Assembly (NCBI RefSeq): GCF_056712565.1
Contig: NZ_CM160072.1
Length of the DNA: 64,000 bases
Strand: one strand, 5' to 3'
Shown here: piece by piece, positions 20,391 to 60,600 of the stretch
How the letters are laid out: every line of letters begins with the position of its first letter
Numbering within the stretch: position 1 is the stretch's first letter
The notes under the pieces: model-generated
Databases searched by the model: none
What the model was told of the DNA's origin: nothing
What the model saw: only the letters and a program-made list of their open reading frames with translations
Program-made: the position numbers and the translations under genes

Positions 20391-21428
20391 ATGTTTTCCG
20401 CATTGCGCCACCGTACCGCTGCCCTGGCGCTCGGCGTATGCTTTATTCTCCCCGTACACGCCTCGTCACCTAAACCTGGCGATTTTGCTAATACCCAGGC
20501 ACGACATATTGCTACTTTCTTTCCGGGACGCATGACCGGAACTCCTGCAGAAATGTTATCTGCCGATTATATTCGCCAACAGTTTCAGCAAATGGGTTAT
20601 CGCAGTGATGTTCGGACATTTAATAGTCGGTATATTTATACCGCCCGCGATAATCGCAAGAGCTGGCATAACGTGACGGGAAGTACGGTGATTGCCGCTC
20701 ATGAAGGCAAAGCGCCGCAGCAGATCATCATTATGGCGCATCTGGATACTTACGCCCCGCTGAGCGATGCTGACGCCGATGCCAATCTCGGCGGGCTAAC
20801 GTTACAAGGAATGGATGATAACGCCGCAGGTTTAGGTGTCATGCTGGAACTGGCTGAACACCTGAAAAATACGCCTACCGAGTATGGTATTCGATTTGTG
20901 GCGACCAGCGGCGAAGAGGAAGGAAAATTAGGCGCTGAGAATTTACTCAAGCGGATGAGTGACACCGAAAAGAAAAATACGCTGCTGGTGATTAATCTCG
21001 ATAACTTAATTGTTGGCGATAAGCTGTATTTCAACAGTGGCGTAAACACACCTGAAGCAGTAAGGAAATTAACGCGCGACCGGGCGCTGGCAATTGCCCG
21101 CAGCCATGGAATTGCCGCCACCACAAATCCAGGTTTGAATAAAAACTATCCGAAAGGCACCGGGTGTTGTAATGACGCAGAAATATTCGACAAAGCCGGT
21201 ATTGCTGTACTTTCGGTGGAAGCGACTAACTGGAATCTTGGCAATAAGGATGGTTATCAGCAACGCGCAAAAACAGCCGCATTCCCTGCGGGAAATAGCT
21301 GGCATGACGTAAGACTGGATAATCAACAGCATATTGATAAGGCACTTCCTGGAAGAATAGAACGTCGCTGCCGTGATGTTATGCGGATAATGCTACCGTT
21401 GGTGAAGGAGCTGGCGAAGGCATCTTAA
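20391..21428 (+). CDS. iap: Alkaline phosphatase isozyme conversion aminopeptidase
   Basis: 345-aa ORF with signal peptide and M28-peptidase-like core; divergent from cysD as in E. coli. Confidence 0.9.
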   Translation: MFSALRHRTAALALGVCFILPVHASSPKPGDFANTQARHIATFFPGRMTGTPAEMLSADYIRQQFQQMGYRSDVRTFNSRYIYTARDNRKSWHNVTGSTVIAAHEGKAPQQIIIMAHLDTYAPLSDADADANLGGLTLQGMDDNAAGLGVMLELAEHLKNTPTEYGIRFVATSGEEEGKLGAENLLKRMSDTEKKNTLLVINLDNLIVGDKLYFNSGVNTPEAVRKLTRDRALAIARSHGIAATTNPGLNKNYPKGTGCCNDAEIFDKAGIAVLSVEATNWNLGNKDGYQQRAKTAAFPAGNSWHDVRLDNQQHIDKALPGRIERRCRDVMRIMLPLVKELAKAS

Positions 21429-21552
21429 TGGGTTTGAAATGATTACTCCCTTGCCTGCAGGAAATCAATGCCACCAGAAACAGAGTATAAAAAAGGGTGC
21501 AGGAGACCAAACCATCACAATTCAGTACGCGGGGTTTTACCCCGCGTGGTGG

Positions 21553-21705
21553 CTACTTCTTCGATTCGTAAGCGAGAACTGCCTTAAACTCCATACCACG
21601 TTCTCTGATACTCAACTCACACAACGAGTCGCCTACCATCAACGTGAATCCCAGTACTGTACAACACAGTACGATGATTGCCACAAGGGCATATTTTGTC
21701 AGCAT
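21553..21705 (-). CDS. Hok/Gef-family type I toxin (small membrane peptide), HokE-like
   Basis: Translated by hand from the minus strand: [50 protein letters not shown] (50 aa, ATG to TAG). Hok-family hallmarks: N-terminal TM helix, conserved SLCE motif and C-terminal AYE(S/P)K. GGGAGG Shine-Dalgarno 7 nt upstream. Below the 60-aa cutoff, so absent from the track. Confidence 0.8.
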
Positions 21706-21969
21706 GTCTTGCCTCCCTGCAAAGAAGAGACTAACATCCGAATTGCTTAGGTTCGAACGTAGGCCTCAGGTTGATAGAAATATCGCCTGGGGCTTTTGTC
21801 CATCTGGAACCTCGCGAATGCTTAACGCCAGACAGCCTCAAGCACCCAATGCCATTCTATACCTGTTAATTCTCCCTGCGACGTTCTCGTTTAAATGCCG
21901 GAATGCTGCTCGCAAAATAAAAACGCCCCCATCATTTCTGACAGAGGCGTTTAATTTATCCGGCAATAT

Positions 21970-22704
21970 TTACCCTTCGTGTAATCCACATTCCCTTTTT
22001 AAGCCAAAGAAACGCGTTTCTTCTTCCGCCATGCCGGGTTCCCATTTACGGGTTGTATGGGTATCGCCCACCGATAAATATCCTTCATCCCATAATGGGT
22101 GATATTTCAGGCCATGTTTTTGCAGGTACTGATAAATAGTTCGGTTATCCCAGTCGATAATCGGCAGCACTTTAAATACGCCACGCTGAATTGCCAGCAC
22201 CGGTAAATTGGCGCGGCTGCCGGATTGTTCACGGCGCAGGCCAGCAAACCAGGTTTGCACATTCAGTTCTTTCAGCGCCCGGTTCATCGGTTCGACTTTG
22301 TTGATGTCATTGTACTTTTCAATGCCTTCAACGCCCTGCTCCCACAGTTTGCCGTAGCGTGCTTCCTGCCAGGCGGCGCTTTCGGTAGCACGGTACACTT
22401 TCAGGTTGAGCTTGAGTTTATCCGTTAACTCGTCAATAAAGCGGTAGGTTTCCGGGAACAGATAGCCGGTATCGGTGAGGATCACTGGAATATCCGGGCG
22501 AATCTGATTCACCAGATGCAGACTCACCGCCGCCTGAATGCCAAAGCTGGAAGAAAGTACATATTCACCGGGCAGATTATCCAGCGCCCAGGCTACGCGG
22601 CCTTCAGCGTCCAGTTTTTCCAGTTGGGCGTTAGTTTCCGCCAGCGCCAGAATCCGGTCTACCTTTGGCAGTTCGTTCAGGGCGTTTAGATCGAGTTTGG
22701 ACAT
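21970..22704 (-). CDS. cysH: Phosphoadenosine phosphosulfate (PAPS) reductase
   Basis: Start placed at [23 protein letters not shown]... (244 aa); C-terminal ECGLH motif; followed by cysI and cysJ. Confidence 0.93.
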
Positions 22705-37765: not shown

Positions 37766-37810
37766 GTGAGGAAGGCCGGGCGGGAAACTGCCCGGCATGA
37801 ACATACCTGA

Positions 37811-37900
37811 ATGGTTATCCCCGCTGACGCGGGGAACTCATATCCGGTTTTTGCTGGTGGGCCGCGCCGTTCGGTTTATCCCCGCTGGTGCGGGGAACTC
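37811..37900 (-). CRISPR. Minimal orphan type I-E CRISPR array: two repeats and one 32-nt spacer
   Basis: Repeat A at 37872..37900 (cggtttatccccgctggtgcggggaactc) is the reverse complement of the E. coli type I-E repeat GAGTTCCCCGCGCCAGCGGGGATAAACCG with one mismatch. Repeat B at 37811..37839 (atggttatccccgctgacgcggggaactc) is a degenerate copy with 4 mismatches, as expected for a terminal repeat. Spacer 37840..37871: atatccggtttttgctggtgggccgcgccgtt. Location between ygcE and queE matches the K-12 CRISPR-II position. Confidence 0.85.
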
Positions 37901-38230
37901 TCTAAACATAACCTATTATTAATTAATTATTTTTTAAGCCAGTCACAATCTACCAACTTTACAGTATCACACAAACAACACATCCATTATGTTAAAGAGC
38001 ACTTAATCCATTGATTAAAAAGATAAATATTTAAAATAACTCTATTCAAACTAAAATCTACCAAACTTTACCGCAATAATTTTCACTCCAGCGAAAAATT
38101 AACGCCACAGAATTTGTAGAGAATGATAATGATTAGTCCAGAATGGGCAAAATGGAGGTTTTTCAGAGGCGACAAAGAATATAAATGAGTAGAAGTCTTT
38201 ACAGATTCCACCCATTTATAACGCTTATAA
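37901..38230 (-). promoter_or_regulatory. AT-rich putative CRISPR leader adjacent to the less-degenerate repeat
   Basis: About 330 bp of very AT-rich non-coding sequence abutting repeat A, on the side where a type I-E leader is expected. Extent not defined from sequence. Confidence 0.5.
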
Positions 38231-38238
38231 ATGTTTAA

Positions 38239-46762: not shown

Positions 46763-46833
46763 TGAATTGTCCTGAAAATTGCGGGTCCGTCAGGTGTAAA
46801 CCTGTGACCAGAATAGAAGTGAGTTAGTAACAC

Positions 46834-47169
46834 CTACCCAATCAGCACGTTAATTTTGGCTTTAATGAGTTGTAATTCCTCTGGGGCAACTGTTCCTTTC
46901 TTCGTTGCTCCTCTTGCCCGCCAGGCGATACTTTTTACCTGATCAGCTAACGCTACGCCATCACGTTCCTGACCGGATAGAACAACTTCGAACGGATATC
47001 CTTTTGATTGCGTTGTACAAGGAACACACAGACACATACCTGTTTTGTTGTTGTACATGAACGGACTCAGGACAACAGCCGGACGATGTCCGGCTTGCTC
47101 GCTACCTTTTGTCGGGTCAAAATCAACCCAAATCAGATCGCCCGTATCGGGTACGTATCGGCTTACCAT
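46834..47169 (-). CDS. mazF: Type II toxin MazF (mRNA interferase)
   Basis: 111-aa [66 protein letters not shown] sequence (here [14 protein letters not shown]...). Confidence 0.9.
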   Translation of the reverse strand: MVSRYVPDTGDLIWVDFDPTKGSEQAGHRPAVVLSPFMYNNKTGMCLCVPCTTQSKGYPFEVVLSGQERDGVALADQVKSIAWRARGATKKGTVAPEELQLIKAKINVLIG

Positions 47170-47417
47170 TACCAGACTTCCTTATCTTTCGGCTCCCCCC
47201 AGTCGATATTCTCGTGGAGGTTTTCCGGCGTGATGTCGTTGACCAGTTCAGCAAGCGTAAATACGGGCTCTTTACGCACTGGCTCAATAATTAATTTGCC
47301 ATCCACCAGGTCAATCTTCACTTCATCATCAATATTCAGATTGAGCGCCTGCATTAACGTAGCCGGGATCCGCACCGCCGGTGAATTTCCCCAACGCTTT
47401 ACGCTACTGTGGATCAT
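47169..47417 (-). CDS. mazE: Type II antitoxin MazE
   Basis: 82-aa [50 protein letters not shown]...; stop overlaps mazF start. Confidence 0.9.
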
Positions 47418-60231: not shown

Positions 60232-60600
60232 AATAAAAAAAGGGAGCACTGTATTCACAGTGCTCCCGGTTCGTTTCGCAGCATTCCGGCTACTTTTGTT
60301 GCTCCCTGCTCATCCTTGACAACTTTTCCTCTGGCCTTGCGGCCAATCGTTCATCCTGAACTATTGCTTCCTGCTCACACCACCCCGATGTGATACTTCA
60401 TCCTGAAGTGTTCCTGGCCTTCCTGACCCACCGAATCATCCTGACCGGTTCTCATTCTCCATCCTGGAGGTGTCCTTTAACGCGTCCTGCGTCATCCTCT
60501 TCGCTTCATCCAGAAGCCTTTCCCTGAAACACCATCCTGGTGTGTCCTTCAGAAGTGTCATCATCCTGATGTTCACTTCGTTGTCTGACTCCCTGTCGAC
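60232..60600 (-). ncRNA. csrB: CsrB small RNA (CsrA-sequestering)
   Basis: 369-nt span on the minus strand carrying about 20 CAGGA(U/A)G / AGGA motifs (seen as catcctg repeats on the + strand), 5' end GTCGACAGGGAGTCAGAC, and a 3' terminator hairpin (gggagcactgtattcacagtgctccc) followed by a U-tract. The length equals that of K-12 csrB. Confidence 0.88.

Follow-up and report, generated by a model that had tools for sequence, protein, structure and literature searches.

Between iap and cysH, Escherichia coli K-12 carries a CRISPR array followed by cas2 through cas3. The locus described here raises the question of what became of that immune system in a genome where the two flanking genes are separated by little more than a toxin gene. 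The original prediction, which gave the K-12 order correctly, held that the cas operon and the CRISPR-I array are missing, that a Hok-family toxin-antitoxin module is found there, and that the module had replaced the immune locus. The first two statements are borne out and the third is not. We conclude instead, with considerable confidence, that the gap is the cas-E-less CRISPR-I allele known as arrangement B, in which hok/sok is a resident and from which the CRISPR-Cas cassette was most likely lost anciently. The features that frame the gap in the window (the whole 64-kb stretch of DNA that was analysed) are as follows.

20391..21428, + strand: iap (alkaline phosphatase isozyme conversion aminopeptidase), an open reading frame also annotated in FDAARGOS_536 and ATCC 11775
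21429..21439, no strand: the 11 bp after the iap stop codon, TGGGTTTGAAA, common to cas-bearing and cas-less alleles
21440..21487, no strand: a 48-bp stretch, TGATTACTCCCTTGCCTGCAGGAAATCAATGCCACCAGAAACAGAGTA, non-coding and allele-specific, in the position of the CRISPR array and cas operon
21921..21952, - strand: intrinsic terminator of the cysJIH operon, from a terminator scan (14-pair stem, then a T-run)
21970..22704, - strand: cysH (phosphoadenosine phosphosulfate reductase), an open reading frame also annotated in FDAARGOS_536 and ATCC 11775

The layout is therefore iap, 11 shared base pairs, the 48-bp stretch, hok/sok, the cysJIH terminator and cysH. The gap runs from 21429 to 21969 and measures 541 bp; the boundaries proposed for it (iap ending at 21428, cysH at 21970, about 540 bp between them) are correct. 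Weak Rfam matches to ctRNA_p42d and Spot 42 over the cysJIH terminator fall under the gathering scores, and we take them to be terminator look-alikes.

When 24 Cas proteins, eight from each of three type I-E variants (K-12, O157:H7 and KTa005), were compared with the window by tblastn, the best match had an E value of 0.018, and the sole match inside the iap–cysH gap had an E value of 3.3, which is to say that the gap holds no cas sequence. Nor is any cas gene annotated for the window stretch in near-identical genomes. The 29-nt type I-E repeat consensus (at most three mismatches) and the palindromic core of the repeat, CCCCGCNNNNGCGGGG (at most one mismatch), are both absent from 21429-21969; within the window, each matches only at 37811-37900. 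The tblastn and repeat scans uphold the claim that cas open reading frames and type I-E repeats are absent from the gap. CRISPR arrays can misassemble from short reads, and one might suppose that repeats and a cas region had been collapsed or dropped from this assembly; we consider that practically inconceivable, since the same compact layout occurs in 1106 complete genomes, is 100% identical in FDAARGOS_536, and has its junction filled by an unrelated 48-bp sequence that is conserved across species.

The module beside cysH is made up of the elements listed below, on both strands.

21488..21847, - strand: putative full-length hok transcript unit, placed by the start of the Rfam sok match at 21847, by folds and by homology
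5' end of this transcript, probable start at 21847, - strand: GGGUGCUUGAGG, the tac element
3' end of this transcript, ending at 21488, - strand: CUCCUGCACCC plus a U-run, the fbi element, complementary to the 5' end GGGUGCUUGAGG
21527..21547, - strand: GC-rich hairpin GCGGGG-TTTTA-CCCCGC, the 3' hairpin of the hok transcript, immediately after the stop codon
21553..21705, - strand: hok toxin open reading frame, 50 codons (50 aa), Pfam PF01848 Hok/Gef, RefSeq 'Hok/Gef family protein' WP_000956458.1
21699..21737, - strand: upstream open reading frame of 12 codons, from frame translation, its stop codon overlapping the hok start
21709..21797, + strand: predicted sok antisense unit, from conservation and the precedents of sok in plasmid R1 and sokX as annotated in K-12
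21709-21714, + strand: predicted sok -35 element TTGCCT, from conservation
21732-21737, + strand: predicted sok -10 element TAACAT, from conservation
~21744-21797, + strand: predicted Sok RNA of ~54 nt, with a terminal hairpin and U-run
21854..21859, - strand: candidate hok promoter -10 element TAGAAT, 6 nt upstream of the probable start at 21847

The assignment of the toxin to the Hok family holds: the hok frame is intact, it is accompanied by a sok antisense region, and its product covers model positions 1-42 of 42 in PF01848 (E = 6.3e-10). It scores 53 bits against the NCBIfam HokA model, under the cutoff of 89, and matches the Hok subfamily model under cutoff as well. The leader is matched at full length by the Rfam sok model RF01794 (21690-21847, - strand; 112 bits against a gathering score of 59, E = 1e-26). 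In the predicted minimum-energy fold of the transcript the segment GGGUGC..GAGGCU pairs with the 3' end, and a consensus fold of 11 homologues retains this 5'-3' fold-back (pairs 1-13 with 342-354) in 11 of 11, with compensatory changes at 10 pairs elsewhere. Because the fold-back is kept and the paired positions covary in these models, the module appears to be under constraint.

The hairpin at 21527-21547 is likewise kept in other genera, and its pairs (301-322) are conserved in the consensus fold. We considered whether it could be a degenerate CRISPR repeat and rejected the idea: the order of its arms is reversed relative to a CRISPR repeat, and the hok 3' region, to which it belongs, is kept by genera lacking cas genes at the site. 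In the window the G-run of this hairpin, near 21534, reads GCGGGG, one base shorter than the GCGGGGG of most homologues, and the stem still forms. The 12-codon frame upstream of hok (21737-21699) ends 4 nt into hok; its counterpart in Atlantibacter is longer and reads on into hok, and the frame is possibly a truncated equivalent of mok. On the opposite strand, Escherichia, Atlantibacter and Lelliottia all keep both sok hexamers and the hairpin, and the predicted unit lies within the Rfam sok match and is exactly the part that K-12 keeps. A simple sigma-70 promoter scan reported neither the expected sok promoter (8/12 matches) nor the hok promoter; we infer both from conservation and analogy.

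The hok/sok (parB) system of plasmid R1 and the chromosomal hokA-E loci of E. coli are known from the Gerdes laboratory, and the window module resembles them in its Hok/Gef toxin of about 50 aa, its leader and antisense region matching the sok model, its predicted 5'-3' fold-back and its small upstream frame. It differs from R1 hok/sok in that it is chromosomal and at a fixed site, in that its mok-like frame has just 12 codons, and in that its toxin falls under the NCBIfam HokA and Hok cutoffs. By analogy with R1, we would expect the full-length hok mRNA to be stable, folded back and translationally inert, and to become translatable after trimming of its 3' end. The short-lived Sok antisense RNA would pair with the hok leader and trigger its decay, so that loss of Sok would allow the 50-aa membrane toxin Hok to be made. 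Since the module sits at a fixed chromosomal site and is not borne on a plasmid, it has no evident role in post-segregational killing.

It is easy to see how such a module could be mistaken for the successor of CRISPR-Cas. In the window no gene but hok separates iap from cysH, and K-12 has cas genes and no hok open reading frame, so that the two systems seem mutually exclusive if just these two genomes are compared. Among complete E. coli genomes (n = 5426, searched by megablast with the gap, the module being counted when at least 80% of it was present) that impression disappears. The hok/sok module lies beside cysH in 4146 of the 5426, against 1106 with the compact, cas-less gap, and, with an identical Hok protein, it is found between cas3 and cysH in thousands of cas-bearing genomes, a co-occurrence that refutes the idea of a clean replacement. 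The identical Hok protein, WP_000956458.1, is encoded between cas3 and cysH beside complete type I-E operons in O157:H7 and KTa005; the order in O157:H7 is iap, array, cas2 through cas3, hok, cysH, with the same Hok as in the compact genomes. In KD602 an identical Hok adjoins a cas operon that is truncated and disrupted by an insertion sequence. Other genera, without cas genes between iap and cysH, carry the module in this position too.

K-12, the reference against which the replacement was proposed, is itself the unusual case at this locus. Its hok open reading frame and the hok 3' region are gone and only the sok side is left, with similarity to the window starting at position 21703, the first base of the hok start codon. 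K-12 lacks hok because its E2-type cassette extends to the position equivalent to 21703. Published surveys agree: only strains with the E2 cas variant lack hok sok, according to Almendros 2014 (mBio, PMC3903273), and a 2025 survey (PMC12736100) places hok and sokX beside cysH in 90% of uropathogenic strains and sokX alone in K-12-like strains. We therefore regard replacement of the type I-E locus by the toxin-antitoxin module as highly improbable. In our reading hok/sok is a long-standing occupant of the cysH side of the interval, a fixed neighbour of cysH that did not arrive in exchange for CRISPR-Cas.

The element in KD602 is an IS4-like IS421 (IS186-type) located in the G-run of the hok 3' hairpin (~5950-6010 of locus L005, corresponding to window position 21532). 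This insertion fits the published GC-rich insertion hotspot at the boundary, and the hairpin is an IS186/IS421 site in other strains.

Where the cassette would have been is defined closely by alignment. The comparison with K-12, put forward at the outset as the means of placing the junctions, sets the left end at 21439 and finds the K-12 match resuming at 21703. By blastn against KTa005 and K-12 alike, similarity ends at 21439, and the left junction lies at 21439/21440 within about 3 nt; the preceding motif TGGGTTTGAAA is also present in E. albertii. The right junction lies at 21487/21488. Homology to cas-bearing strains resumes at 21488, the same nucleotide serving as the boundary for three left-hand sequences unrelated to one another (the 48-bp allele, the region upstream of E1 cas3 and the 3' end of the oppositely oriented cas3 of KTa005), and this nucleotide coincides with the 3' end of the hok transcript.

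In cas-bearing strains a cassette of 9-10 kb, from the array trailer through the cas3 promoter region, occupies the place of the 48 bp. What follows on the iap side in such strains is, according to PMC3903273, the array trailer, made up of a degenerate repeat and a fixed spacer. Nothing equivalent to the 48-bp stretch exists in the K-12 and KTa005 loci, where k-mer and blastn comparison found chance 10-mers only. The stretch is present in 1127 of the 5426 complete E. coli genomes, one copy in each and always at the iap–cysH site. E. whittamii, Escherichia sp. E1V33 and strain E69, which have a compact hok allele with a diverged 48 bp, keep it with substitutions. Against the empty iap–cysH sequences of other genera in our species scan it showed no evident similarity.

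That scan, made with the Iap protein and one genome per species, yielded 80 loci, 55 of which hold both iap and cysH. The distance between the two genes is under 250 bp in about 32 of the 55, and the junction is empty in most Enterobacteriaceae species. Type I-E cas genes are found at the site in about 13 loci, including those of Salmonella diarizonae, E. albertii, some Citrobacter, Klebsiella grimontii, Raoultella terrigena and Pluralibacter. In Atlantibacter (three species) and Lelliottia (one) hok/sok lies between iap and cysH and directly abuts the iap stop codon, with Hok identities of 82-86% and DNA identity of about 80%. E. albertii NBRC 107761 retains 54 bp of the 3' end of the module at 96% identity beside an E1-type cas3 (L056, 20451-20504), and the following ~530 bp of that locus contain no hok open reading frame. 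Other cargo is also seen at the site: a RES/Xre type II toxin-antitoxin pair above NCBIfam cutoffs in one locus (L085), a type VI secretion Hcp/TssD gene in a second (L069), and a small gene followed by an HTH antitoxin-like gene in a third (L068). Since different species hold type I-E CRISPR-Cas, hok/sok, a RES/Xre pair, an Hcp gene or nothing between the two genes, the scan suggests that the iap|cysH junction is a general insertion hotspot across Enterobacteriaceae.

The KTa005 locus (L001, 4819-14003) is a rare third type I-E variant at iap–cysH. Identity to K-12 is 98-99.7% for cas1 and cas2, and for the Cascade proteins and Cas3 it drops to 26-56%, whether the K-12 or the O157 type is taken for comparison. 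The cas3 gene lies on the opposite strand, with the stop codon exactly at the junction with the hok module. A cas3 of this type occurs in 27 of the 5426 complete genomes, at 99% identity or more in all of them; the nearest Cas3 proteins in the species scan are those of Enterobacter sp. BIGb0383 (69%), Raoultella terrigena (62%) and Pluralibacter (62%).

How the cas-less allele arose is a harder matter. The parsimony scenario set out in PMC3903273 derives arrangement B by deletion between the intergenic blocks IG6 and IG3. Starting from the common cas-bearing arrangement, a plain deletion does not yield the window sequence, since cas-bearing alleles contain nothing that corresponds to the 48 bp. 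The diverged cas-less allele in other Escherichia and the empty junctions elsewhere fit an old allele, one that possibly never held a cassette. Carried to its end, this line of thought makes the compact allele the ancestral, never-occupied state of Escherichia, into which type I-E cassettes were later inserted in other lineages, displacing the 48 bp. Such a history would account for the absence of the 48 bp from cas-bearing alleles and its presence, with substitutions, in E. whittamii, E1V33 and E69. It would also suit the close spacing of iap and cysH, which lie <250 bp apart at ~32 of the 55 species loci, and a gap without repeat or cas remnant, when intermediates of decay do keep them (eight repeats and a cas3 fragment in L011, solo repeats in L055). 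It is harder to reconcile with the E1-type cas genes beside a hok remnant in E. albertii and the E1-like cas genes in Salmonella, which point to an old cas-bearing state, with the published parsimony scenario, which is one of deletion (PMC3903273), and with a second site in the window.

37811..37900, - strand: orphan type I-E mini-array (CRISPR-II), in the ygcE-queE locus (37771-38236), 16 kb from the gap

This mini-array consists of an AT-rich leader, a consensus-like repeat GAGTTCCCCGCACCAGCGGGGATAAACCG, a 32-nt spacer AACGGCGCGGCCCACCAGCAAAAACCGGATAT and a degenerate terminal repeat, and its locus is 100% identical to that of ATCC 11775. As a relic it testifies to the former presence of type I-E material in the lineage; an array at ygcE-queE needs type I-E Cas1-Cas2 to have been present once, or else import by recombination. 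Taking both sides together, we think a site that was never occupied a real but distinctly less probable history, and we favour an old loss, with the resulting allele kept by recombination. The type I-E cassette would most likely have been lost in an old event that left the 48 bp standing in its place, and the cas-less allele would then have spread and persisted by homologous recombination within the conserved sequences that border it (iap to the left, hok/sok-cysH to the right). Whether the cas-less and cas-bearing forms of iap-cysH represent an old presence/absence polymorphism across Escherichia species, as opposed to a recent deletion in B2, is in our estimate evenly balanced; the older date is indicated by the ending of both alleles and the rare third cas variant at one nucleotide and by the conservation of the 48 bp across Escherichia lineages.

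A role for the spacer AACGGCGCGGCCCACCAGCAAAAACCGGATAT against cas genes or phage was considered and set aside, no protospacer being found in the three cas loci or in 50,697 phage or 72,556 plasmid records; these searches gave chance partial matches only. In FDAARGOS_536 a 6.7-kb sucrose (scr) cluster, encoding a kinase, a porin, a PTS IIBC subunit, sucrose-6-phosphate hydrolase and a LacI-type regulator, occupies ygcE-queE (L008, 37770-44490) instead of the orphan array. A sucrose cluster is likewise found at ygcE-queE in many uropathogenic strains (PMC12736100).

The nearest complete genome to the window is that of ATCC 11775, the E. coli type strain, at 99.978% identity over 40.8 kb of the window; FDAARGOS_536 is 100% identical across the gap and 99% overall. 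We take ATCC 11775 to belong to phylogroup B2. Arrangement B is typical of B2 lineages, and strains without cas are mostly of this phylogroup (PMC12736100). The suggestion that cas genes of another type, such as type I-F, might exist elsewhere in the genome proved well founded in this near relative: ATCC 11775 has a type I-F locus between clpA and infA, comprising cas1f, cas3f, csy1, csy2, csy3 and cas6f with two arrays. By way of this near-identical genome, and for a region outside the window, it can be inferred that the window lineage was not left without CRISPR-Cas. In ATCC 11775 csy2 (L093, 15725-16648, outside the window) is annotated as a pseudogene with an internal stop, and the type I-F system there may be non-functional for that reason. 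Two other features of the window may be recorded here.

~46830-47410, - strand: mazE-mazF type II toxin-antitoxin pair, in the order relA, mazE-mazF, mazG as in K-12, a second toxin-antitoxin system in the window
60232-60591, - strand: CsrB small RNA, a full-length Rfam match of 381.7 bits

The compact iap–cysH layout is real, ordinary and already published. It matches the written description of arrangement B in Almendros 2014 (PMC3903273): cas-E genes, leader and CRISPR2.1 array are absent, and hok sok and the cysH-proximal intergenic blocks remain. Arrangement B is found in strains outside the cas-E1 and cas-E2 groups, mainly B2 (PMC12736100 and PMC3903273), and corresponds to Groups V-IX of the 2025 survey, which are without Region B CRISPR-Cas components (PMC12736100). 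Nothing substantive separates the window from it, and the 48-bp filler goes unmentioned in the portions of the PMC3903273 text drawn on here. With K-12 MG1655 the window shares its flanks and the sok-side sequence next to cysH (21703-21969, ~95% identical); K-12 has the array, eight cas genes and a sokX remnant without hok, and the window is the reverse. With the O157:H7-type (E1) locus, arrangement A, it shares everything from 21488 to cysH, the Hok protein, the end of iap and the 11 bp after it, and it has 48 bp where O157:H7 has the array trailer, array, leader, cas2 through cas3 and the AT-rich region upstream of cas3.

The value of this analysis is mainly corrective, in that comparison of a B2-type E. 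coli with K-12 alone creates a false picture of a toxin-antitoxin module displacing CRISPR-Cas. It is K-12 that is exceptional, having lost hok. The cas-less allele is common to about a fifth of complete E. coli genomes. To the published account we add the exact junctions, the private 48 bp and its presence in other Escherichia, the hok/sok of Atlantibacter and Lelliottia at the same site, and the varied cargo carried there across Enterobacteriaceae; these additions refine the published scenario and leave its substance unchanged. The iap–cysH interval is a textbook example of how CRISPR-Cas modules are gained, lost and exchanged when conserved flanking sequences recombine.
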